DNA of 63,996 nt, filler included, from an uncultured Methanosarcinales archaeon (lineage in GTDB: Archaea; Nanobdellota; Nanobdellia; Woesearchaeales; CAYXTQ01): NCBI GenBank assembly GCA_964608065.1. It is 6 parts of 6 records of this genome, joined end to end, with 100 filler letters (N's around TTAATTAATTAA, not from the genome) between each part and the next. Parts side by side here need not be neighbours in the genome. Positions count along the whole stretch, not along the records: positions 1 to 12,382 come from CAZSMA010000042.1; 5 more parts are not named here. One strand, written 5' to 3'. The translations under genes and the position numbers were made by a program. This document shows, piece after piece, positions 1 through 46,645 of the stretch. The notes under the pieces are model-generated. The model was not told the DNA's origin. It did no database searches and worked only from the letters and a program-made list of their open reading frames with translations. How positions within the stretch are numbered: the stretch's first letter is position 1; each line of letters opens with the position of its first letter.

Positions 1-31
1 AAAATAAAAAATAAAAAAAAAAAATTATGGT

Positions 32-88
32 TTACAAACCTGCTTCCTTCTTTAGTACTTCAGCTTTATCTGTAATCTCCCAGATAAA
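32..88 (-). pseudogene. Relic second copy of the metK 3' end
   Basis: Minus strand reads [18 protein letters not shown], versus [18 protein letters not shown] at the end of metK (2257); many third-position differences. Confidence 0.85.
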
Positions 89-179
89 GTAGAGATAAGC
101 AGAAATTTCTCTCGTCGATTGATTATGAATTTTGAGTGTTTATATAGTTTTTGGAGTGAAAGTCCGACAGGGCAGAGTT

Positions 180-713
180 TTACTTGTTCAAAACTATATC
201 TCTTGTTGCATCTATTAGTTTTCTGCAGTCTTCTATCATTCCTTTTATCTTGTCTTTATTTGTGACAGAAATTTCTGTACCATAAGTATACTCTTCCCTC
301 ATTTCTATGATTTTCTTATCTTCTTCAGAATCAATATCTGCGTATTTCAACATGTTTATGAATCTATCTTCGATATCTATTTTTCCTTCCTCCTTGAGAT
401 ATTCCATGAGAGCAATAGTGCAAGATTGATTTCTGCTCTCGTAGCCGAATTTTGTAGCTATAGCTAACATACAATGATACATACTGTAGAAAACCATGCT
501 AATACTTACATCTTCAAAGTTACCCTTTAGAAGATAGATTATTGCATTTAGGTTGTGCTCTGCTTTATTAAGATGCTTCATTGCTTTTTTTGTATTAGGA
601 CTTGATTTTAGTAAACCTCTATGTTGGATTCTTAATCCTTGTTTCTTACAATCTTCAACTTCTTTTTTAGCCTTATTTAAACACCACTTTATCATATTAG
701 AAGCCTGTGACAT
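180..713 (-). CDS. HEPN domain protein (toxin-like partner of the upstream nucleotidyltransferase)
   Basis: HLNKAEHNL...FYSMYH...GYESRNQ...MREEYTYG pattern; overlaps the end of the MNT gene. Confidence 0.8.
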   Translation of the reverse strand: MSQASNMIKWCLNKAKKEVEDCKKQGLRIQHRGLLKSSPNTKKAMKHLNKAEHNLNAIIYLLKGNFEDVSISMVFYSMYHCMLAIATKFGYESRNQSCTIALMEYLKEEGKIDIEDRFINMLKYADIDSEEDKKIIEMREEYTYGTEISVTNKDKIKGMIEDCRKLIDATRDIVLNK

Positions 714-1287
714 TTCTAATCACCTCAACATAATCTTGATGCCCATACAAAATAATGCCTGTCTTAATAATATCTACGAATTCTTCTCCTTTCTGTTGCA
801 AATTTTTTTGTAAATCCACTTTAGTAAGTTCTATTGAGTGAATGGGTCTAGGAAGTATCTGCTGCCTTTTGTCGATTACTTCTTTTACTTGTTTATACTC
901 TCCTTTCTTTATAACTACCATTATATCTATATCTTTAGCTTCCTTAGCATTCCTTATTATGGAACCAAAAAGTATTACAGTTCTGCCAGCCTTGAACAAC
1001 TCTTTAAATTCTTCTTTCCATCGTTTATAACTGCTGGCTTCATCAGCCAAAAGAAATGCAATAGTGCTTCTGGTATAATCATCTTCTAGGTTAGGTTTGT
1101 AAATAATTGATTTACCTATAGTTTTCGCAACTAATAAATTTTCTTCCTTTAACCTTTTAAGCATCTTTTGTGTTCCAACATGACTTATTTTTAATAGTTT
1201 ACTAAGAGAATTAGCATTATATAAAGTAGTATAATCTTTAAATATAATCAACAATGCTTCTCGTTCTTTTTGAGTCAAAGATACCAT
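697..1287 (-). CDS. wHTH-fused minimal nucleotidyltransferase (MNT antitoxin-like)
   Basis: N-terminal HTH; ILFGS...DIDIMV nucleotidyltransferase motif. Confidence 0.85.
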   Translation of the reverse strand: MVSLTQKEREALLIIFKDYTTLYNANSLSKLLKISHVGTQKMLKRLKEENLLVAKTIGKSIIYKPNLEDDYTRSTIAFLLADEASSYKRWKEEFKELFKAGRTVILFGSIIRNAKEAKDIDIMVVIKKGEYKQVKEVIDKRQQILPRPIHSIELTKVDLQKNLQQKGEEFVDIIKTGIILYGHQDYVEVIRNVTGF

Positions 1288-1327
1288 AGTAACCTCGAGT
1301 TACTATATAGTAACTTAGAGTTACTAT
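1286..1327. promoter_or_regulatory. Two tandem 21-bp palindromes; probable autoregulatory operator of the MNT-HEPN operon
   Basis: ATAGTAACCTCGAGTTACTAT followed by ATAGTAACTTAGAGTTACTAT, between the TATA box (1325-1332, minus strand) and the start codon. Confidence 0.75.
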
Positions 1328-1386
1328 ATAAATGTTTCGTTTATTTTCTTAAAGAAGCTTCAAATTCATCAATATCTTTTCTCTCT

Positions 1387-1881
1387 CTATTTCTTCGGTA
1401 GATGTTTTAAAATTTCATTTGTTACTTCCATCATATTTTTACCAGAGGTATCAATCTCAATCCCTACTTTTAATCTAGATACCAATTTATAAACGTCTTC
1501 TATTGCTTTTTTTGTCATTGGTTTCTTTCTTGTTTTATTTCGTACAAGACAATCTTTAAGCAATGCTTTAAGCGAGAAAATATAATGTTTAAATGGAAGA
1601 TTTCTCTCAAGATGTTGGAGTTGTCCTTTCCTATAAAAACAACCATCAAATATAACAATTTTATTACTTTTCAATTTTTCTATAGCTTTAGAAATAATTA
1701 ACTTATTAGCTTTTACAAAGTTTTCTGTAGGGATGCCATCCCGAACAATAATATCCAGTTTATTCTTTCTCATTATTTCATCAAAAGAAAAATGGTAACT
1801 ATTAAGAACTTCTGCTAATTTTCTTGCAATTGTTGATTTTCCAATACCTGCTGGACCCCTAATTATAATGAAATAGCTCAT
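1387..1881 (-). CDS. P-loop kinase (AAA_33/nucleotide kinase-like)
   Basis: IIIRGPAGIGKST Walker A, IVIFDG; start taken at MSYF. Confidence 0.8.
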   Translation of the reverse strand: MSYFIIIRGPAGIGKSTIARKLAEVLNSYHFSFDEIMRKNKLDIIVRDGIPTENFVKANKLIISKAIEKLKSNKIVIFDGCFYRKGQLQHLERNLPFKHYIFSLKALLKDCLVRNKTRKKPMTKKAIEDVYKLVSRLKVGIEIDTSGKNMMEVTNEILKHLPKK

Positions 1882-2024
1882 TAATAAGTTAAAAGATTTG
1901 TTAATTATATAAGTTTTCCTAAAAAATAAAAAAAAGTGTAGAATCAACTTATTAATAAGAAAAAGAAAAACAATTTTTCTTTTTAAATATTTTAGATGAA
2001 CAATGTGGTAACAATTTCACCAAA

Positions 2025-2096
2025 TGTCAAAAACTGTCCATCATAGATGGTGGCATGTTATTACATGCACAATGATATTGAATGGTTTTTGAGCAT
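2025..2096 (-). repeat. Partial copy of dispersed ~150-bp element (family A)
   Basis: TGTCAAAAAC..CCATCATAGATGG..GGTTTTTGAGCA, similar to the 24443-24595 copy. Confidence 0.6.
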
Positions 2097-2256
2097 GTTC
2101 GGAAATATACCTCCTTACAATAAGGTATGGTGGATTTCATCCACTGGTTAGAAACCAGTAGTATATTTCCGACATATCCAAGAGAAATATCGTCTACAAA
2201 CGCTACTTAACAAAAAAAAAAAAAATAAAAAAAACGGATTTACGCCGACAATGGAC

Positions 2257-3452
2257 TTAAAGTCCAGCTTCCTTTTTCAGCACTTCTGCCTTGTCAACTT
2301 TTTCCCATGTGAAGTCAGGGTCATCTCTTCCAAAATGTCCATAGGATGCTGTTTTTCTGTAAATAGGTCTTCTAAGTTTTAAGTGATCAATAATCTGCTT
2401 TGGCTTTAATGGAAAGTTTTTTCTTACAAGCTCAGAGATTTTTTCTTCTGGAATCTTGTTTGTTCCAAAACAATCCACATTTATTGAAGTTGGCTCTGCA
2501 ACTCCAATGCAATAAGACAATTGTACTTCGCATTTTTCTGCTAATTCTGCTGCTACAATATTCTTTGCTACATACCTTGCTGCATATGCACCAGAACGAT
2601 CTACTTTGCTTGGATCTTTTCCAGAAAATGCCCCACCACCATGTCTTCCAACACCACCATAGGTATCAACAATTATTTTTCTTCCTGTAACTCCTGTGTC
2701 TCCTTCAGGCCCTCCAATAACAAAAGCACCTGTTGCATTAATATGAATCTTTGTGTCTTCATCAATCCATTCTTTGCAAACTGGCTTGATTACATGTTCT
2801 AATATTTTTTCTCGCAGCTCTTCCTCTGATATATCTTTTTTATGCTGCTGAGCAATAACCACTGCTGTAACTTTTTTAGGTTTGTCATCTTCATACTGAA
2901 CACTAACTTGGCTTTTTCCATCAGGACCAAGATGAGGGATTATCCCTTCTTTTCTGACATATGCTAATCTTTGGGTAAGTTTATGAGCTAAGGTTATTGG
3001 TAATGGCATCAATTCCTTTGTTTCATTACATGCATAGCCATACATCATTCCTTGATCTCCTGCTCCTTGCTCTTTATCTTCTCCTTTTCCTTCTGTAACT
3101 CCTTGACTTATATCAGGAGATTGCTCATGGATTGCAACCCATACACCGCAATCTTCACAATCAATACCGAATCTTGGATTTGTATATCCAATATCCCTAA
3201 GAGTTTCTCTTACAACTTTCTGAACATCAACATAACCATTTGTTGTCACTTCTCCTGCTACATGAACGCTTCCTGTTGTAGTTAAACACTCAACAGCAAC
3301 CCTTGAATAAGGATCCTGCTTGAATAATTCATCCAATATAGCGTCGCTTATTTGGTCACACACTCAAGATACCCAATAGAAAAAAACTATTGAGTTTTAT
3401 CTGGATGACCTTCTGTAACGCTTTCAGATGTTACATATGTTATTTTTCCCAT
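2257..3452 (-). CDS. metK: S-adenosylmethionine synthetase, bacterial/eukaryotic type; two exons (3452-3397 and 3364-2257), 387 aa after joining
   Basis: Exon 1 [18 protein letters not shown](K) with upstream GGAGG; exon 2 VCDQISD...GAGDQG...[16 protein letters not shown]. Confidence 0.95.
3365..3396 (-). other. Predicted 32-nt bulge-helix-bulge (BHB) intron in metK mRNA
   Basis: Central helix AGAU/AUCU, 3-nt bulges AAA and UGA, 9-bp inner stem; canonical cut sites rejoin CCA GAT AA|A GTG TGT. Confidence 0.85.
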
Positions 3453-3519
3453 ATTATATCCCTCCATTATTAGATTTTAAATAAATTTCAACATCTTTGT
3501 TTAAAAACCTTTCTGAAAG

Positions 3520-3541
3520 AAATATTCCTATAGGAATATTT
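3520..3541. promoter_or_regulatory. Perfect 22-bp palindrome between divergent metK and HTH-CBS genes; probable operator
   Basis: AAATATTCCTATAGGAATATTT. Confidence 0.65.
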
Positions 3542-3593
3542 TTGTTATTTATTTTAGTAAAGAATAAATATAAGTTGTATTTTTGTTGTAATT

Positions 3594-4139
3594 ATGCCAT
3601 ATGAAATAACTGAGATAAAGCTGATAAGAAAGAAAGTTGGTTTAACACAGAATGAACTAGCCAAACAATCAGGAGTAAGCCAGAGCTTAATAGCTAAGAT
3701 TGAATCTGGAAGATTAGATCCAACTTATTCTAAAGCAAGAAAAATAATGGAAACATTGAATTCATTGACTAAAAAGCAGGAGTTGAAAGCAATAGATATA
3801 ATGAATAAGAAAATTATTTTTATAGAATCAAGTGAAGATATAAATGAAGTGATAAAAAAGTTAAAAAAATATGAAATTTCGCAGTTTCCTGTGTTAGAAA
3901 ACAATAAATGTATTGGCTTAGTCTCAGAGTCTATTTTATTAGATGCAATAATAAATAAAAAAGGAAAGAAAGTTAGGGATATAATGGAAGAAGCTCCTCC
4001 TACTATATCTAAGGATGCTGGTGTTGATATAATCTCTAATCTGTTGAAATTCTATCCTATCATATTAGTAGCTTCAAGCGGTAAATACAAAGGGATAATC
4101 ACTAAATCAGATATGTTACTGAAGATTTATAAGAAATAA
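3594..4139 (+). CDS. XRE-HTH plus CBS-pair transcriptional regulator
   Basis: GLTQNELAKQSGVSQSLIAKIESG HTH; ISQFPV...GIITKSD CBS pair. Confidence 0.9.
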   Translation: MPYEITEIKLIRKKVGLTQNELAKQSGVSQSLIAKIESGRLDPTYSKARKIMETLNSLTKKQELKAIDIMNKKIIFIESSEDINEVIKKLKKYEISQFPVLENNKCIGLVSESILLDAIINKKGKKVRDIMEEAPPTISKDAGVDIISNLLKFYPIILVASSGKYKGIITKSDMLLKIYKK

Positions 4140-4142
4140 AAA

Positions 4143-4760
4143 TTACTCTATCTTCAAAATCTTAGTCAAAGTCTTAATCTCATTACCATCAGAATCTTCA
4201 AAAACAAACTTCAGACTTTGATCTAATTCAAAGTTGTATAAGTTCAAACCTGAAATATCAAAGAAGGTTTTAGTTTTGTGGTCTCCTGCACCTATTGCAG
4301 GGAATTCTAAGGTTGTCCTAGGGTTTCCGTTGTACTCTTCACTTGTCTTAGAGTTTGAATGATAGATCTTGACTTTCATCTGTAAATTAGAATCCAGGCC
4401 ATTATAGATAATAAAGCTTAAGGAGCTAATAACTGCTTTTTTATAAACTGCGCTTTCTTTTATAGTGTAGCTTATAGGAACTGCAATAGTTATATCAACA
4501 TTTCCGCTAAGGTCTTTTTTGGCAGTTGTTTCTGTTTTAGTTTCAGGCTCTGTTTTTATAACTTCTTCAACTTTTGTTTTTTCTTTTTCCTCAACTTCAG
4601 ATAAACCAATTACATCTCCTGTGATATTGTCTGTTTCGCCTCCTGAACATTGAGAATATTTATAAGAATAATAAATTGTAGTTGACATAAAAATAAGGAT
4701 TATAACCATAAATACTATCCTTTCAAGCTTCCTTGGTGTTAACTCAATTTCTATTGCCAT
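4143..4760 (-). CDS. Hypothetical single-pass membrane protein
   Basis: N-terminal TM helix, charged linker, beta-rich C-terminus. Confidence 0.6.
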   Translation of the reverse strand: MAIEIELTPRKLERIVFMVIILIFMSTTIYYSYKYSQCSGGETDNITGDVIGLSEVEEKEKTKVEEVIKTEPETKTETTAKKDLSGNVDITIAVPISYTIKESAVYKKAVISSLSFIIYNGLDSNLQMKVKIYHSNSKTSEEYNGNPRTTLEFPAIGAGDHKTKTFFDISGLNLYNFELDQSLKFVFEDSDGNEIKTLTKILKIE

Positions 4761-4851
4761 AATCCAATAAATTGATAATCTCATATTTAAGCTTTTTGGT
4801 AGGGGCTATAAAACAAAAAATTTAAATAACTCACACTATTAAATTTAATTA

Positions 4852-6012
4852 ATGGCATTTATAAAATTCAAGCTTGAGAAAGATAAGGAAGAAAGAGCTA
4901 TTAAAACCTTAAAATTAGGTGGAAAAGGGAAAACCGGAGAAACACCTAAAATAAAAGCAAAAAGAAAAGTAAAGACAAGTACTGGTAAAAAAGGTTTTAT
5001 ACTTGATTGGGAATCTGAACTTGGTTATTCTGCTAATCCTTTTGAGACTAAAATATTGGCTCCAATAAGCAGTTATATTGCAGGATATTCAAAAGAGAAG
5101 AATGGCATCAATCTTTTTGTAATAAACAATGAAAAATTTGGTATAATCACAGGAGAGTATGGTGTTGGCAAGACAACCTTGTTGAAATGGTTGCATGAGC
5201 AGTTGCAGAAATATAAGGAAAGGGTTATGGTCTATTATTTCAATGGTAAGGTTCTTTTTCAGGAATTTATTTTAGTAAAAAGTCTGGTAAATCCTCTTTT
5301 AAGCTTATATGAGAAAAAAATTAAAAAATTGAATAAAGATGTTAATATAGAGAGGAATCTCTCTTTGTTAAAGAAAAAGATTGGCAATAAAAAATTAGTT
5401 CTTTTGATAGATGATGTAGAATCTGTACCTTCCAGTGTATTGTTATTGCTGAAGAAGATGTATAGTGTGATGCCTTTGGAAATAATCATGGTCTGCAACA
5501 GCCATGCAGCTCAGAAGTTAAGGGAAATAGACTGGTTAAAAGACAGATTAAAAATGAAATTAAAAGGATTAGCTGTTCCAGAAGCAACAGTTATGATAAG
5601 AAAAAGAATTACTGCTTTTGGAGGAGAAGATATTTTTCCTTTTGATGACAGCTATGTACATAAAATTTGCAAGCAAGCCTCTTATAATCCTAAACAGATA
5701 CTGGATTTATGCCAGCATTATGCTATTGAGTTAGCTGTGAAACAGGTTAAAAGAAAAATCCAAAATAAAGCTGAAGTAGTTAAGGAAGAAGTAAAAGAAG
5801 AGAAAAGTGTTAAAGAAGAAGTTAAAGACGAAGAACAAAATTCTGAAGTTCCTGTCCTAAAAGAGATTCCTAAGAGAAAAGAATATCATATAAAGGTTAT
5901 AAATCAGGGTTCAGAAGCTATTTCTATGGATGACTTGAAGAAAGATGAGAAAGGAAATTATAATAAAAAAATTTCTAAAAAAAAAAAAAAAAAAAAAAAA
6001 CTTTTAAAGTAA
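4852..6012 (+). CDS. ExeA-like AAA ATPase
   Basis: NPF motif, ITGEYGVGKTT Walker A, LLIDD Walker B; 3' end uncertain because of a poly-A run. Confidence 0.75.
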   Translation: MAFIKFKLEKDKEERAIKTLKLGGKGKTGETPKIKAKRKVKTSTGKKGFILDWESELGYSANPFETKILAPISSYIAGYSKEKNGINLFVINNEKFGIITGEYGVGKTTLLKWLHEQLQKYKERVMVYYFNGKVLFQEFILVKSLVNPLLSLYEKKIKKLNKDVNIERNLSLLKKKIGNKKLVLLIDDVESVPSSVLLLLKKMYSVMPLEIIMVCNSHAAQKLREIDWLKDRLKMKLKGLAVPEATVMIRKRITAFGGEDIFPFDDSYVHKICKQASYNPKQILDLCQHYAIELAVKQVKRKIQNKAEVVKEEVKEEKSVKEEVKDEEQNSEVPVLKEIPKRKEYHIKVINQGSEAISMDDLKKDEKGNYNKKISKKKKKKKKLLK

Positions 6013-6460
6013 CCTTTTTATTTTTTATTAAGTAACTTCTTCATTCTCTGTGAATGTAAAATCTTATTCAAAACTTTTAAAAATTGTTTACTGTGTTCTA
6101 ATGGTATGGTGATAGAATGTTCATGAACCCATTCGTTTTCAACTTTTTTTTTTTTTGTATTAATAGATATCTTCCAAACTCATTCTCTAAAATATCAAAC
6201 CATATTGTTCTGTTATTATAATCCAGTTTTTCAAAATCAAAATGTTGTATTCTATGGTTAGGATAATAAACTTTTGTAACACCAAATTTTTTCATATAAA
6301 TTTCATTCTCAAGAATTAATATTTGTAAATGTTTCTCAATAGCTTTTCTGGAGAACTTTGTTCCACGAACTATCTGCGTCATAGTTAAACCCTTAGGATT
6401 ATTTCTAAGAAATTCAATAATTTTGTTGTGTAGTATTTTTTCTTTTTTTGCTGGATACAT
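6004..6460 (-). CDS. wHTH DNA-binding protein with apparent homopolymer frameshift near 6150
   Basis: GLTMTQIVRGTKFSRKAIEKHL HTH; reading continues in another frame as VENEWVHEHSITIP...LL*. Confidence 0.65.
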
Positions 6461-6669
6461 TTTATACTTACTATTAAGAACCGAAACATTTATATATTTA
6501 TTGTTCTTTATATTGGTTACCAACCATAGTTACAATAAAATAGTCATGAAATATTTTTTTTAAAAAAAAAAAAAAAAAAAGTGGCCGAGAAAGGCCAAGT
6601 TAGCATCTCACCCGGATAATAGATGAAATACAATAGAAGTATATAAAATTTTTGATAAAGGTGATGGAA

Positions 6670-7686
6670 ATGAAAAAAGAAACAAAAGCAAATGCTATTA
6701 AGTCAAATTATAAAATTTTGATCAACAATATTGGCAAAATACTAGAAAAAGGACGAAAACAAGTGGTTATAGCTGTAAATAATATTCTCGTTAACACTTA
6801 TTGGGAAATAGGGAGACAGATTGTTGAATTTGAGCAGAAAGGGAAAGAAAAAGTGGAGTATGGTAGTAAACTATTTGAAAGAATAGCTAAGGACCTAAAA
6901 GACAGATATGGGAAGGGATTTAGCAGGAGTAATATTATCTACATGAGGTTATTATATCTGAAATATCCAAAAAGTCAGACACTGTCTGACCAATTGGGTT
7001 GGAGCCATTATATTGAGCTCGTTAGCATAGATGATGACCTAGAAAGATCCTTTTATGAGAAGCAGTGCATAAAGGAAAATTGGTCAGTTAGGGAATTAAG
7101 AAGACAAATCAACTCTGCTTTATTCTACAGAATAGCTTTAAGTAAGGATAAAAAAGGTGTCTTGGAGTTATCCAAAAAAGGTCAAATTATAGAAAAAGCA
7201 AAAGACTTGATAAAAGAGCCGTATATTCTAGAGTTTCTCAACATTCCCCAGCATTATAGCTATTCTGAAAAAGAATTAGAACAAAAGATAATAGATAACT
7301 TACAAATGTTTCTTCTGGAATTAGGAAAAGGATTTACTTTTGTAGCAAGACAATTTAGAATAAGCTTCGGTAATAAAAATTTTTATGTTGATTTAGTATT
7401 TTATCACATGATATTGAAATGTTTTGTACTTATTGATCTAAAAATAGGTGAAGTTAATCATCATGATATTGGCCAGATGAATCTTTACTTAAATTATTTC
7501 AAAGCAGAAGAAAATTCAGATGAAGATAATAAACCTATTGGTTTGATATTATCTGCAAAGAAAAATAACATCCAAGTAAAATATGCTCTTGGTGGAATAT
7601 CTAACAAATTGTTTGTTTCCAAATATAAATTATATCTTCCTGATAAAAAACAACTAGAAGAAAAGATAAGGAGGTTACTTGAATAA
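6670..7686 (+). CDS. DUF1016/YhcG-family PD-(D/E)XK nuclease-domain protein
   Basis: YWEIGRQI, YGKGFS, WSHY, FLLELGKGF, VDLVFYH, IDLK, GQMNLY. Confidence 0.92.
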   Translation: MKKETKANAIKSNYKILINNIGKILEKGRKQVVIAVNNILVNTYWEIGRQIVEFEQKGKEKVEYGSKLFERIAKDLKDRYGKGFSRSNIIYMRLLYLKYPKSQTLSDQLGWSHYIELVSIDDDLERSFYEKQCIKENWSVRELRRQINSALFYRIALSKDKKGVLELSKKGQIIEKAKDLIKEPYILEFLNIPQHYSYSEKELEQKIIDNLQMFLLELGKGFTFVARQFRISFGNKNFYVDLVFYHMILKCFVLIDLKIGEVNHHDIGQMNLYLNYFKAEENSDEDNKPIGLILSAKKNNIQVKYALGGISNKLFVSKYKLYLPDKKQLEEKIRRLLE

Positions 7687-7703
7687 GTATATTTTATGTT
7701 AGA

Positions 7704-7916
7704 ATGCAAATAACCTTTCAAAACATAGGATGGAAAAGCAAGGTCACACAGAAAAGATCTACTTTAAGTATTTCTATCAACAAGTTAGTTGCAGTTGGAT
7801 GTTCTTTAGAGAAAGGTCAGACATTATATTCTTATTTAGCAGAAGACGAGCAGAAACGACCCATAATGATTACCTACTTAGACAGCAAAAAGAAAGGACA
7901 TATAGTGATTTTGTAG
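7704..7916 (+). CDS. Small hypothetical protein, AbrB-like
   Basis: SKVTQKRSTLSISINK...LEKGQ pattern. Confidence 0.5.
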   Translation: MQITFQNIGWKSKVTQKRSTLSISINKLVAVGCSLEKGQTLYSYLAEDEQKRPIMITYLDSKKKGHIVIL

Positions 7917-8009
7917 GTTGAGGGAATGTTTTTACACCCACAAAAACATATGTTATAGTTATTTAAGTAAGTTGTTTTACCAAATAGCAGTTTAAAAGAG
8001 GGTGATAGT

Positions 8010-8468
8010 ATGAGATTAGGTGAAGCATTAAGTAAACTAAAGAAAGAGAAAAGTAGATTAGCACGATTGATTTTGTTGAGAAAAGAAAACATCTATGTAG
8101 AAGAAGGTAAAAAAACAAAATTTAATCCAAAGAAATTATCTGAAGAAATAGATAAGAGAATCGAAGATATTAGAAAGCTAAAGATTAAGATACAAAAAAC
8201 TAATTTAAATACGACAGTTAATGGAGATAATGTAATCTTAGCTGAAGCTATAGTTAAAGTTAATGATTTACGAAGCAATCTAGCTCATTTAAGTAGTTTG
8301 TTTGAGAAAAAAGAGCGTTATTTATTTAGAGATAAGGATGAAAAGGAAATGGTAACTCAACTTGATGAACTTGAAATAGAGGATAAAATAGAAAAATTAG
8401 AGATTGAAAAAGTTCAGCTTGATAATAAAATACAGATGACTAATTGGACAACTAAATTAGTTGATTAA
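8010..8468 (+). CDS. DIP1984-family coiled-coil protein
   Basis: MRLGEAL...IQKTNLNT...LAEAI...LDNKIQMTNWTT; GGTGA SD. Confidence 0.85.
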   Translation: MRLGEALSKLKKEKSRLARLILLRKENIYVEEGKKTKFNPKKLSEEIDKRIEDIRKLKIKIQKTNLNTTVNGDNVILAEAIVKVNDLRSNLAHLSSLFEKKERYLFRDKDEKEMVTQLDELEIEDKIEKLEIEKVQLDNKIQMTNWTTKLVD

Positions 8469-8492
8469 GCTTATCTATCCTTGATAGGTAAG

Positions 8493-8699
8493 ATTGCTGA
8501 CAGTTTTGTAGGTAAGCGCAGGCGTGTAGTGGTTTGTCTTATACAAATCTTATGATTTGGATGGGGTAAATGCTGCACACCACCAAGATGGATAATGATG
8601 GGATGTGATGCCTTAAAGATAAAAGATTAAAGATCATTGCTTAAGGATTAAAGCTTAAAGCTCATATGCCTGTGTTTTTCTTTCTTAGCTGTTGGCAAT
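8493..8699 (+). ncRNA. Putative structured ncRNA with an internal heptamer array, downstream of the DIP1984-like gene
   Basis: 13-bp and 14-bp nested long-range stems rich in G-U pairs; seven in-register 7-mers at 8614-8662. Confidence 0.6.
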
Positions 8700-8834
8700 T
8701 TATTATCTATTGGTTGAATTTCAAATGGTGGAATCAAAAATAAAAATGGACACACATCCATAGACCAGCTCTATTTGAGCACACTAATCAAGGGCAAGGC
8801 AGTCTTCGGTTAGTAGGTCTGGAGTGTGTCCAGA

Positions 8835-9035
8835 ATGAGGAAGAAATTACTAGAGTGCAGTATACATGGCCTAACATTATTTAGGTGTAAGAGAAGATGT
8901 TGGAAAAGAGGAGGCAAAAAAGAGAAATCTTATTCTGATGAATATATAGAGGAATGTTTTAAATGTATGAGTGAAGGAATACATAAAAAAGGTGTTGAAC
9001 CTATGCAAAAAAAGAAGAGACATGTTAAAATATAA
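8835..9035 (+). CDS. Small Zn-finger-like hypothetical protein
   Basis: CSIHG...CFKC motif. Confidence 0.5.
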   Translation: MRKKLLECSIHGLTLFRCKRRCWKRGGKKEKSYSDEYIEECFKCMSEGIHKKGVEPMQKKKRHVKI

Positions 9036-9062
9036 TAAGAGAGATAGAGAGAGAAAAAAAAA

Positions 9063-9824
9063 TTACTTCAAACCCCTCAACCTCCTAAAATCATAGACCT
9101 TGTCTGCTACAATATAAACATTAAAATTGTCTAAGTTTTGCTGTAAGAATGGGCTTAGTGTTTTTTCCATCAAAAATCCTTCGGATTTTTGGGGTTCCGA
9201 AAATCTTTGATTTTCGAGAACTTTTGTTATGTCTGTTCCTTCTGTTACTAAATTAAAAGAAGGCTGTACAATTAATGTTTTTCTTTTGAACTTTCCTTTT
9301 AGAAAGCATTTGTATTTTTCGATTCTAGGGCTGTCTTTTAGAGTTATGGCAGGGTGTTCGTGGCCAATAATTATTATTTTACTCTTTTTTATTAATTTTT
9401 CAATGTCTTTGTTTAGTTTATCACCATGAATTACTAGAATATCTTTCAAAATAACATAATCCTTGACTTCAACATTTCTTTTCTTAGCTATTGGACCTAA
9501 AATATTGTCATGGTTGCCTTTTATCAAAATTACTTTTCCGTATTTTGCTAAGAAATCCAATAATTTTAGAGTGTGCCTCCATTCCTGCTCAGAAATTCTG
9601 CCAAACTCATGCTTTATGTCTCCATTGATGATTATGTTATTTACTTTTACTTGTTCTAATATTTTTTCTAGTCTTTTAATGATTTCAGTAAACTGGAACC
9701 TTGGAATTAAAATACCTTGTTTATTCAAGGATTCTTCAAAGCCAATATGTATATCACATATTATCAGGGTTTTATCTATCAACAATCCTAAATCTATGAT
9801 TTTGATGTTGTTGTGAATGTTCAT
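9063..9824 (-). CDS. Metallophosphoesterase (Lhr-associated MPE-like) with an 18-aa in-frame insertion
   Basis: DIHIG, NGDIKH, GNHD, HG, GHEHP motifs; directly downstream of lhr. Confidence 0.9.
   Translation of the reverse strand: MNIHNNIKIIDLGLLIDKTLIICDIHIGFEESLNKQGILIPRFQFTEIIKRLEKILEQVKVNNIIINGDIKHEFGRISEQEWRHTLKLLDFLAKYGKVILIKGNHDNILGPIAKKRNVEVKDYVILKDILVIHGDKLNKDIEKLIKKSKIIIIGHEHPAITLKDSPRIEKYKCFLKGKFKRKTLIVQPSFNLVTEGTDITKVLENQRFSEPQKSEGFLMEKTLSPFLQQNLDNFNVYIVADKVYDFRRLRGLK
9168..9221. repeat. Twin-hairpin element (family B) inserted in frame in the CDS
   Basis: CAAAAATCC-TTC-GGATTTTTG plus GTTCCGAAAATC-TTT-GATTTTCGAGAAC. Confidence 0.75.
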
Positions 9825-12382
9825 TTTTTCTTTCCAATCTTAGCTAATATATTATTGTGCATCTTTCTTATGAACTCTATTTTATCTTCTATCTTCATTA
9901 TGTCAACATAACCTTGTGTTATTAGGTTAAATGCAAATGGGGATGGTAAAGGTGTAGTTATTTTTTTTATTCTTATTTCTTTTTTTTCAATTTTTTCCAT
10001 TATTTTAATTGCATTATCTATATCCATCAGATCTTCAAGAACCTCTCTTCTTGCTTCTTTTAATATTACAAAATCAGGATCAATCCTTTTGACAGCACTC
10101 ATCAATATCATAGAAGAAACCTGCTGTCTTCCAACTCTTTTTCTTCTTCCTTTATAGTTTCTTAAAATCATTAAACTTCTTGTAGCACAATGCCTGAATC
10201 TTCTTTTCAAAACTTCTGTTTTTTCTATTGCCCTTTCACATACTGCTCTTAATTCTTTTGATTTTAGCAAATTCAATGCATTTAATGGATTTATTTTTTT
10301 TGGAGAGGTTATATAAAAACCATTATCATTTATTCCGATCTCAACATTAATATGCTGAGTTCTAGCTATCGCAAAAGCTAAAGCTCTTGACAAACAATCA
10401 TTGACTCTTCTTCCAAATAATATATGGAATAAATAATAAGTCTGCTTTCCATCATTATAGATTTCTACAACTATTTTTTTGTCAGAAGGAATCTGTGAAA
10501 AATTGAATTGTTCGTAGAAATATTCATACAATGCTTCTGCTCCGTTTTTGTCGATGTATAAATATTTATTAAGAAAATCTATGATTTCTTCTTTACTTTT
10601 TCTTTTTGTGAATAAATCATCCATATATCTTCTGAATCTGCCTATGTTCATACCTAAATCAAAGCTTAGTGGCAGCATTTCTGAATACCATGATGGAACA
10701 GTTGGTGGTCTATTTGCAGAAGCATTAACCTGAGCAACCATTCCTCTGCTGAACTTGAACTGATAAACCTGTCCTCCTAAGACAAAAATGTCACCAGGTC
10801 TAAGTCTTTCTAAGAAAGCTTCATCAATTGTTCCGACAGTTTGCTCTCCAACTTTAACTCTTACAGAGGTTTCATCTGGAATAGTTCCTATATTTGTCAT
10901 GTAGATAACTCTACCCATTCTTCCTTTTCTTCCTATCATTCCATTGTCTTTATCATGCCATATCTTAGCATAAATATGCCTGTCTTCCAAGCTTACATAT
11001 TTTCCTGAGAGATAATCAATTACATCCATAAAATCCTTTCTTGTTAGGTCTTTGTAGCAATAGCTTTGTTTTACTAATTTGAAAAGATCATCAATATGTA
11101 TGTTTTCTTCCAAAGCAATACCATCTATTTGTTGTGATAAAACATCTAAGCAGTTAGTTGGAATATGTATTTTGTCTATTTTTCTTTCTATTGCAGATTT
11201 TAACAAGCAGGCACATTCAACTAAGTCATCTCTTCCTAAAACAATAAGCCTTCCTTTAGTTGTGTCATGCAATTTGTGGCCTGATCTTCCAGTTCTTTGC
11301 AATGCTCTTGCTACAGATTTAGGGCTGCTTAATAAGATGACTAAATCAATATAACCAATGTCAATTCCTAATTCTAAACTTGTTGAACATACAACAACTT
11401 TTAGTTTTCCTTCTCTTAATCTGTTTTCAATATTTAATCTGTGTTTTTTAGATAAAGAACCATGGTGAGCACCGATGTTCTCTGTGTAGTTTTTTGGAAA
11501 CTTTTCCTTTAAGTGATGTACAACCCTTTCAGTTGCAGCCCTTGTATTAGTGAATATCAGAGTTGTCTTATGGTCTTGTATTAATTTATCAAGTAAAATA
11601 TACATGCTATTATGCATGTTTTCATGTGTTGTGTTAATTAGATCAGGCAATGGACTTAATACTTTCAGATCCAGTTCTTTAATAAACTGGACATCAACAA
11701 TTTTACAGTTTCTTATTTTATCGTTTTCATAACCTACTAGGTATTTTGCAATTTCTTCTAATGGAGCGACTGTTGCGCTTAATCCAACTCTTGTCAGATG
11801 AGGACTTAGTCTTGATAATCTTTCCATACTTAGATTTAAGTGAACTCCACGTTTGTTTTCAGCTAAAGCATGGACTTCATCTATAATGCACCATTCAACA
11901 TTTCTTAATAATTCTTTAAATTTTATAGAAGACAATACAATAGCTAATGATTCTGGAGTTGTTATTAAGATATGTGGAGGTTTTTTAAGCATTTTTTGCT
12001 TTTCAGAAGGAGTTGTATCTCCTGTTCTTACTGCTACCCTTATGTTTAGTTTTTTACCTGCTATATCTTCCATTTCTTTTAGAGGTTCTTTTAGGTTTTT
12101 TTCAATATCATTGTTCAATGCTTTTAATGGAGATATGTATATGCAGTATACTTTATCCTCTAGAATTCCTTTTTCACTTGAATCAATTAATTCGTTTAAT
12201 ATAGATAAAAAGCCTGTTAATGTTTTTGTTGCTCCTGTTGGAGCTGAAACAAGGATGTTAGACCTTGAATGAATTTCCATGACACCGTATAATTGCGGTA
12301 AAGAAAAAGTCTTAAATCTACTAAAAAACCATTTCTTTACTAATGGATTCAGTATATGTTTAACCTGTTCTTCATTGTAAGG
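9821..12382 (-). CDS. lhr: Lhr-family ATP-dependent helicase, 5' end cut by contig edge
   Basis: SPLKALNND, TTPESL, DEVH, SAT, HHGSLS, STSLELGIDIG, QRTGRSGH; frame open to the contig end. Confidence 0.93.
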   Translation of the reverse strand, partial: PYNEEQVKHILNPLVKKWFFSRFKTFSLPQLYGVMEIHSRSNILVSAPTGATKTLTGFLSILNELIDSSEKGILEDKVYCIYISPLKALNNDIEKNLKEPLKEMEDIAGKKLNIRVAVRTGDTTPSEKQKMLKKPPHILITTPESLAIVLSSIKFKELLRNVEWCIIDEVHALAENKRGVHLNLSMERLSRLSPHLTRVGLSATVAPLEEIAKYLVGYENDKIRNCKIVDVQFIKELDLKVLSPLPDLINTTHENMHNSMYILLDKLIQDHKTTLIFTNTRAATERVVHHLKEKFPKNYTENIGAHHGSLSKKHRLNIENRLREGKLKVVVCSTSLELGIDIGYIDLVILLSSPKSVARALQRTGRSGHKLHDTTKGRLIVLGRDDLVECACLLKSAIERKIDKIHIPTNCLDVLSQQIDGIALEENIHIDDLFKLVKQSYCYKDLTRKDFMDVIDYLSGKYVSLEDRHIYAKIWHDKDNGMIGRKGRMGRVIYMTNIGTIPDETSVRVKVGEQTVGTIDEAFLERLRPGDIFVLGGQVYQFKFSRGMVAQVNASANRPPTVPSWYSEMLPLSFDLGMNIGRFRRYMDDLFTKRKSKEEIIDFLNKYLYIDKNGAEALYEYFYEQFNFSQIPSDKKIVVEIYNDGKQTYYLFHILFGRRVNDCLSRALAFAIARTQHINVEIGINDNGFYITSPKKINPLNALNLLKSKELRAVCERAIEKTEVLKRRFRHCATRSLMILRNYKGRRKRVGRQQVSSMILMSAVKRIDPDFVILKEARREVLEDLMDIDNAIKIMEKIEKKEIRIKKITTPLPSPFAFNLITQGYVDIMKIEDKIEFIRKMHNNILAKIGKKK

Positions 12383-46561: not shown

Positions 46562-46645
46562 GCCAACGTCGCATAACCTGGTCGTGCAGCTGTCTCGAAA
46601 ACAGCTGTCCTTCGGGACATGCAGGTTCAAATCCTGCCGTTGGCG
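46562..46645 (+). tRNA. tRNA-Ser(CGA), no intron
   Basis: GCCAACG/CGTTGGC, GCTGT-CTCGAAA-ACAGC, variable arm GTCC-TTCG-GGAC, TTCAAAT. Confidence 0.95.

Follow-up and report, generated by a model that had tools for sequence, protein, structure and literature searches.

Which kind of element lies directly past the stop codon of a small DIP1984-like gene (8010-8468, + strand) in an uncultured DPANN archaeon of the Woesearchaeales, and does it act together with the encoded protein? The window analyzed in this study is the whole stretch of 63,996 nucleotides, filler included, from assembly GCA_964608065.1, a 1.4-Mb genome of 131 contigs with 96.8% completeness. Positions 1-12382, where the gene is located, are one contig of this genome, and other contigs make up the remainder of the window. 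A preliminary description had proposed a module of a protein and a non-coding RNA (ncRNA) at this locus, in which an oligomeric protein binds repeated units of the RNA. The RNA was found to be real, structured, strand-specific, periodic and tied to one protein subfamily. We infer from this a gene-RNA module whose array would load several copies of the protein, and for this reading, with the binding, the stoichiometry and the role that it entails, we see the chances as evenly balanced.

Architecture and strand of the RNA

The structured RNA extends over 8470-8699 on the + strand. It measures ~230 nt, longer than the ~200 nt estimated at first, and no open reading frame (ORF) of at least 60 aa was found in 8469-8700, in agreement with the preliminary description. 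The RNA is delimited by its folding energy, by matches in relatives with nhmmer and a covariance model, and by covariation, and it has no Rfam match. The 240 nt past the stop codon fold on the + strand with -78.1 kcal/mol and a z-score of -5.06, which none of the 200 shuffles attained, versus a z-score of -1.5 for the - strand of the same region.

The RNAalifold consensus of 21 long forms is composed of helices P1, P2, P3 and P4 and of an unpaired stretch with a GAUG-rich segment and the array. P1 (8470-8492) is a hairpin beginning two bases past the stop codon. It had been noticed before and is conserved, with nine pairs kept in 21 aligned relatives and two pairs changed on both sides; single folds place a P1-like hairpin ahead of P2 in most of the 64 sequences described below. 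P2, the closing stem of 13 bp, joins 8493-8505 to 8687-8699 exactly as first read, and is helix 1 of the covariance alignment. Helix 2, named P3, is formed by 8510-8521 and 8670-8682 (the ACCUGUGUUUUUC region). This second pairing had also been proposed, together with an inner GTGTAG (8524-8529) that belongs instead to a local hairpin with CTGCAC (8573-8578). The hairpin in question is P4 (8524-8578), which is long, variable in length and represented by helices 3 and 4 of the alignment. A variable linker follows, and then a GAUG-rich segment ending in a conserved GAUGC word (8579-8612), as judged from column information and sequence reading. The GATG repeats mentioned in the preliminary description correspond to four GATG words at 8587-8610. 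The constant core of the RNA consists of P1, P2, P3, the GAUGC word and the array. In the ~160-nt forms P4 is reduced or lost; by gap counts it is absent from about 20-30 of the 64 sequences, and it carries an insertion at one locus (L007).

Covariance model R1 was built from P2 to P2, with 201 positions and 43 pairs. P1 is outside R1, and its support therefore comes from RNAalifold and the single folds. A total of 64 distinct sequences were matched by R1 over the full length, with scores of 34-203 bits on the gene strand and five antisense echoes of 20-26 bits. Compensatory changes were observed in all 43 modelled pairs across these sequences. Both-side changes occur in 13/13 pairs of P2, 10/10 pairs of P3 and all 19 pairs of P4, and 95.4% and 89.6% of the cells are paired in P2 and P3, respectively. 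Over the whole model 92.2% of the cells are paired compared to 72.3% in shuffles, a percentage which is inflated by the fitting of the alignment to the structure. Stronger evidence for the structure than the percentage paired comes from the many pair types and from the covariation score, which is 0.474 for the modelled partners and 0.06-0.09 once these are displaced by 1-3 columns.

The + strand is fixed by the frequent G-U cells that keep the helices paired, and the earlier assignment to this strand stands, as it does by the z-scores. The same data bear on an explanation that dispenses with the RNA and takes the locus as an element acting in the DNA, for example an origin or a set of iteron-like repeats for protein binding, with inverted repeats on either side. 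Short direct repeats within inverted repeats can be DNA binding sites, and the bacterial homologues of the gene are plasmid-borne; however, the helices are kept via G-U pairs valid on the + strand only, the - strand folds no better than shuffles, R1 scores much higher on the gene strand than in its antisense echoes, and a contig from an RNA library covers part of the element. We regard a DNA element as extremely improbable.

No described RNA family was recognized. Rfam 15 at the gathering score yielded one tRNA at 46562 and nothing else in the 64-kb window. At E ≤10, 8300-9200 gave two rows of 12 bits, which is chance level; loci of relatives gave tRNAs only, and nothing relevant came from the 26 related loci scanned.

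The seven heptamers (8614-8662) of the preliminary description were recovered and extended. TRF detects a period of 7 with 6.9 copies (8613-8660) in the window, and the in-register run comprises nine units (8606-8668) with the consensus U-N-A-N-N-G-N and core units UUAAAGA (8613-8661). By pattern count, the 64-kb window has no run of eight consecutive TNANNNN units outside 8606-8664, and 100 shuffles give an expectation of 0. The period is strictly 7 throughout the family. The longest in-register U.A run in the 64 sequences has a mean of 7.05 units at period 7, versus 1.75-2.5 units at periods 5, 6, 8 and 9 and a mean of 2.0 (maximum 5) in shuffles. At least seven uninterrupted units were counted in 33 of the 64 sequences and six in another 21, most of which possess one early unit of 6 nt that shifts the register once.

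The highest column information of the RNA lies in the array, above that of the stems. Eight units have a near-invariant U at position 1 and a near-invariant A at position 3, and G occupies position 6 in 69%. The array is unpaired in the RNAalifold consensus fold, and a search by pairwise covariation for a hidden helix or pseudoknot involving it gave isolated, background-level pairs only. The array is thus a conserved, periodic single strand, looped out by ~23 bp of stem. Since it is unpaired, strictly periodic and the best conserved part of the RNA, the binding of an oligomeric protein to the repeated units, as put forward in the preliminary description, appears plausible.

Sites complementary to the array were searched in the own genome; one site with three mismatches was found, and no target. 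One same-sense look-alike of the array is situated inside a Lys-rich coding frame of this genome. A word resembling the heptamers overlies the ribosome-binding site of the gene but was dropped, being confined to the window and unconserved.

Linkage of the RNA to a subfamily of DIP1984-like proteins

The gene at 8010-8468 encodes a protein of 152 aa. Pfam assigns residues 15-150 to DUF6847 with 61.8 bits (gathering cut-off 27), and the NCBIfam model DIP1984_fam (NF038048) gives 67.7 bits, narrowly below its cut-off of 70; this near miss is consistent with a divergent subfamily. The sole PDB entry matched by sequence is 3kdq from Corynebacterium diphtheriae (E 2e-6). An AlphaFold (AF2) model from 17 relatives displays a four-helix bundle with a pLDDT of 86.1, and Foldseek against the PDB returned chains A and C of 3kdq (TM 0.86-0.91) as the sole match at E ≤0.001, the next-best row being at E 1.5. 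The designation of the gene as DIP1984-like was therefore right, while the coiled coil attributed to it gives way to a predicted bundle rather than a long coiled coil. The 3kdq entry holds four chains, a count that does not settle the oligomer state in solution.

The DIP1984/DUF6847 family has 200 representatives at E ≤0.001 (50% identity clusters), nearly all of ~150 aa, and homologues are carried by 371 plasmid records; some database records call them septicolysin. Intermediate proteins with 33-44% identity exist as well. The window protein resembles canonical members in its size, single domain, sequence and predicted fold. It belongs to a separate DPANN subfamily, which scores 20-45 bits to canonical members compared to 150-180 bits within itself, and, in contrast to them, is paired with another RNA.

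The same RNA was found 3' of the same protein subfamily in 19 of the 19 genome loci examined. DUF6847 is sparse in the host order, above the cut-off in 6 of 401 genomes and in 5 of 201 in another genome set. Close relatives of the protein are held by four of the five other genomes found in the host-order search, and all four carry the RNA directly past the stop codon; the fifth (L006) has a canonical DUF6847 gene without the window RNA type. A scan of species genomes added 13 archaeal loci with 59-83% identity, all (13/13) with the RNA on the same strand directly past the stop codon, and three bacterial loci, all without it. The RNA is also present at both loci (2/2) that came from a second order of the class. 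In metagenomes, 69 loci were found, 57 of which were usable, i.e. include the C-terminal end of the gene and at least 200 nt downstream. The RNA is present at the stop codon and on the same strand in 56 of these 57, many of which come from few sites and hence are not independent; the match at one locus (L041) spans the 5' half of the RNA only, and the single miss is a match of 21 residues. Stem and repeat are kept downstream of the homologue at every genome locus of the DPANN subfamily examined.

Searched with R1, 151 host-order genomes yielded the RNA in three, two of which, including the window's genome, carry the gene. R1 found no match in canonical or bacterial loci among 87 sources. A genome of the same genus possesses neither gene nor RNA, and a DNA search with the 597-nt spacer over 61 related genomes gave short AT-rich chance matches only.

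Canonical DUF6847 genes carry a different conserved 3' element with the blocks GGUAG, GGGCGRAUG, ACC-N6-UGAC and GAGGGYGGGNACGGGG. It was found in Oscillospiraceae, Erysipelotrichaceae, a cyanobacterial plasmid, a mycobacterial plasmid and the archaeal locus L006, and the versions in Acinetobacter and Enterococcus differ more. In all four plasmid records inspected, the gene is followed by 270-320 nt without any gene. Similar to the window RNA, the canonical-type element lies on the same strand directly past a DIP1984-family gene, measures about 190-250 nt and has no Rfam match, and by eye both open with a GGUA(A)G...GGGCG stretch. The window RNA lacks the G-rich 3' tail GAGGGYGGGNACGGGG, however, and the canonical type has irregularly spaced GUUA-like words in place of the periodic heptamer array; R1 gives no cross-match between the two. 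MAFFT and RNAalifold on nine diverse bacterial-type sequences revealed no consensus structure, and a crude test of a long-range helix drawn by eye did no better than shuffles. On these sequence comparisons the window RNA appears to be a distinct, periodic DPANN class, set apart from the canonical-type element.

A hairpin resembling a tRNA T-arm was also observed ~90-115 nt past the DIP1984 stop codon at two bacterial loci (L034 and L036; GGAGUUCGAAUCUCC and GGGUUCGAAUCCC), and the mycobacterial plasmid has its own version (GGGGUUCGACUCCC).

The locus L006 separates host from protein. Against bacterial members its product reaches 86-133 bits, against the DPANN subfamily only 33-44 bits, and its gene carries the bacterial-type 3' element although it comes from the host order of the window. 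The class of RNA therefore goes with the protein subfamily rather than with the host, as a direct partnership of protein and RNA would predict. Together with the co-occurrence at 13/13, 4/4, 2/2 and 56/57 loci, this strongly supports the protein-ncRNA module proposed at the outset.

Adjacency of this kind might also be attributed to a cis-acting 3' untranslated element, which would stabilize, terminate or process the mRNA, or couple the termination of translation to folding, with the array bound by a general host factor. The conserved position right past the stop codon, with P1 only two bases beyond it, conforms to such a role. So do the 58 of 64 loci without a T-run of at least five between the stop codon and P2, which suggests co-transcription, and the bacterial relatives, where the intrinsic terminator follows the 3' element rather than the gene. 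A simple stabilizer, on the other hand, needs no strictly periodic single strand of 60 nt conserved in sequence, and an element whose class switches along with the protein subfamily within a single host order is unexpected for a host-factor site. We consider a cis-element unlikely, though it deserves to be kept in view.

A conserved promoter-like block, composed of CACCCACAAAAACATA.GT.ATAG and a TATA-like TATTTAAG behind it, was read by eye at 7934-7971 (+ strand) ahead of the gene. It recurs 25-50 nt ahead of the start codon in many of 58 loci, an impression by eye and uncounted. This block probably acts as a promoter, and its reach past the TATA-like word may include an operator.

Another candidate partner is encoded further upstream, where a small beta-rich ORF of 70 aa with no known family occupies 7704-7916 (+ strand). 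If the RNA were an independent small RNA, a sponge or a guide, it could serve such a partner and simply be co-inherited with the DIP1984-like gene. The small ORF is upstream on the same strand in 28 of the 38 loci with at least 450 nt upstream of the gene, thus a frequent but non-obligatory neighbour of the module, and is present in all five order-sample genomes carrying the RNA. Its family of 131 clusters is conserved and DPANN-only, the source names shown being all DPANN archaea or 'hypothetical protein', and one array-bearing RNA occurs without a DIP1984 gene (G032). At 10 of the 38 RNA loci, though, the small ORF is out of reach; it is also found in genomes without the module, and in G266 and G325 without the RNA nearby. 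The link of the RNA to the DIP1984-like gene (56/57) is much tighter, which makes an independent small RNA decidedly improbable. AF2 predicts three strands for the small ORF product with a pLDDT of 76, and neither a Pfam match nor a PDB fold match was obtained. An AbrB-like identity was rejected, with no Pfam match in 44 members and no fold match in the PDB.

Several observations weigh against a dedicated partnership of the RNA and the DIP1984-like protein. Besides the inflated pairing percentage and the shared sites of many metagenome loci, the small upstream ORF counts as a second candidate partner (28/38 loci). In G032, a weak and short relative of the RNA (L111:1501-1643, 32.5 bits) lacks any DIP1984 gene within 1.5 kb. 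The isoelectric points of canonical family members are acidic to neutral (5.3-6.8), so that by charge these proteins are not obvious nucleic-acid binders. The oligo-T expected of an archaeal terminator is only modestly enriched after P2 (30/64 versus a background of 21%). As to expression, a single contig of 161 nt from one metatranscriptome run is identical to 8470-8630, falls wholly within the RNA and begins at the first base of P1, which is a weak hint, as this low-depth contig shows neither strand, ends, level nor RNA origin. The DNA run of the same study holds 8331-8548, spanning the stop codon; three DNA runs cover parts of the stretch, and the parts uncovered carry no meaning.

As an observation on its own, the L111 element combines a closing stem and one hairpin with part of a heptamer array; it could be a copy that acts in trans, a remnant or an orphan.

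Known repeat-reading systems and a model for the module

Proteins reading short spaced words in RNA are known. TRAP is an oligomer that reads regularly spaced triplets on the single-stranded trp leader. The Pfam scan of the 152-aa protein gave DUF6847 alone, with no HutP, TRAP or known toxin family, and no homology to HutP or TRAP was found by Pfam or by Foldseek against the PDB. A precedent for the proposed reading is HutP on the hut terminator RNA, where a hexamer reads XAG motifs spaced 7 nt apart (U3, U10, U17; PMC2425495). The window array is similar to the HutP and TRAP sites in its short conserved words, fixed spacing and unpaired strand, and shares the 7-nt spacing of HutP; it differs in the number of units, 8-9 here versus 3+3, and the proteins are not related in sequence or fold. 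The array lies in a closed loop 3' of the gene, in contrast to the HutP and TRAP sites in a 5' leader terminator. The likeness is thus one of layout, and binding is predicted here.

The sponge RNAs CsrB and RsmZ offer many equivalent protein sites, GGA words in hairpin loops that are not strictly periodic. The window array likewise could supply many equivalent sites on one RNA but, unlike Csr, is strictly periodic. Rop/Rom of ColE1 is an RNA-binding four-helix bundle, as the window protein may be, with kissing hairpins as its target instead. No CsrA homologue was found, and the Pfam scan gave no match to Csr or Rop.

The preliminary description had compared the locus to type III toxin-antitoxin systems. 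In ToxIN, CptIN and TenpIN the antitoxin repeats are tens of nt long and foldable, and their array lies upstream of the toxin gene with a terminator between. The window shares with them a protein gene beside a repeat-bearing ncRNA in an accessory, mobile context. Its units of 7 nt are too short to fold, and no longer repeat was reported by TRF; the RNA stands past the stop codon in every locus that has it, rather than upstream; and the protein is an all-helical bundle with no PADLOC or Pfam match to the endoribonuclease kind of ToxN/AbiQ. The type III assignment hence fails in three respects, the length of the units, the order of gene and RNA, and the kind of toxin.

A toxin-antitoxin-like logic apart from type III membership is possible. 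Free protein would then be harmful and the RNA array would soak up copies of it, until loss of the module, or decay of the RNA on stress or infection, sets the protein free. The sparse, patchy distribution among genomes, the frequency of homologues on small plasmids and an RNA that always adjoins the gene, with sites enough to titrate many protein copies, are in line with this idea. Apart from the missing type III traits, though, neither a nuclease motif in the protein nor an enzyme-like Foldseek relative in the PDB was recognized, and PADLOC assigned it to no family, ToxN/AbiQ-type or other. We consider such a pair doubtful.

Returning to the module in which the array loads several protein copies, we propose the following arrangement. 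The gene and the RNA would constitute one unit, probably co-transcribed from the block at 7934-7971. The rod of P1, P2 and P3 would present a single-stranded loop of 8-9 heptamers, to which several copies of the DIP1984-like four-helix bundle might bind, with one protomer or dimer per heptamer reading mainly U1 and A3, and also G6. A defined, RNA-templated protein assembly would result. Its likeliest use is a complex of fixed stoichiometry, either for sequestration or autoregulation or as an active particle, and its setting would be a module that is accessory and moves horizontally, for instance an addiction or defence element. A defence or scaffold ribonucleoprotein, also named in the preliminary description, is possible. 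More tentatively, and with the balance of our judgement on the side of doubt, the array could be a molecular ruler that nucleates 8-9 copies, or four dimers, on the single-stranded loop. The module would then be one branch, that of the DPANN archaea, of a DIP1984 ribonucleoprotein found across prokaryotes and spread by plasmids, with two RNA classes co-evolved with two protein subfamilies, and the particle instead of the free protein would be the functional unit, for instance in addiction or defence.

Genomic context and significance

Just upstream of the module, a YhcG/DUF1016 PD-(D/E)XK nuclease is encoded at 6652-7686 (PADLOC defence candidate PDC-S02, 460 bits) and an AAA-type ATPase at 4852-6012. 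At related loci, a helix-turn-helix protein was found at 16 and a Bro-N protein at 11. The nuclease, the ATPase and the Bro-N proteins elsewhere suggest a variable neighbourhood rich in mobile elements. Given the sparse occurrence in the order (6/401), the plasmid records (371) and the Bro-N and candidate nuclease neighbours, the module is probably accessory. Viral contigs contained no relatives of the DPANN subfamily, which is uninformative on defence either way.

On the other side, a metallophosphoesterase gene (253 aa) and then a helicase-like ORF (819 aa) converge on the module from the - strand (9063-12280), in what looks like an ordinary housekeeping context. Another structured element, ~85 nt long and likewise conserved, was detected at 8748-8831 (+ strand), directly ahead of a Cys-rich ORF of ~66-69 aa (8826/8835-9035); its loop GGCAAGGCAGU is invariant. 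It was found by nhmmer in four other loci (L043, L049, L044 and L014), and in the five sequences 8 of 31 predicted pairs show compensatory changes; no Rfam match was obtained. This element may be the leader of that small, zinc-finger-like gene.

In the literature searched, which excluded subscription journals and supplements, no mention of DUF6847 was found. DIP1984 appears there as an annotation label only, for example in plasmid annotation, and septicolysin in genome annotations only, with no pairing with the term 'RNA motif'. The sequencing runs holding the stretch are mostly labelled as groundwater metagenomes, and the locus looks like an undescribed RNA-protein machine of groundwater archaea. 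To our knowledge, very few structured RNAs beyond the universal ones have been described for DPANN archaea, and the window RNA would join them; a literature search brought up no DPANN paper among its top 15.

The DIP1984/DUF6847 family is widespread and has had a crystal structure since 2009 with no assigned function. A dedicated structured RNA for each subfamily turns this orphan structure into a testable ribonucleoprotein. The two invariant letters in each array unit predict a binding code, a stoichiometry and the mutants to make. Should the array indeed act as a molecular ruler, the resulting RNA-templated protein particle would be of a new kind.

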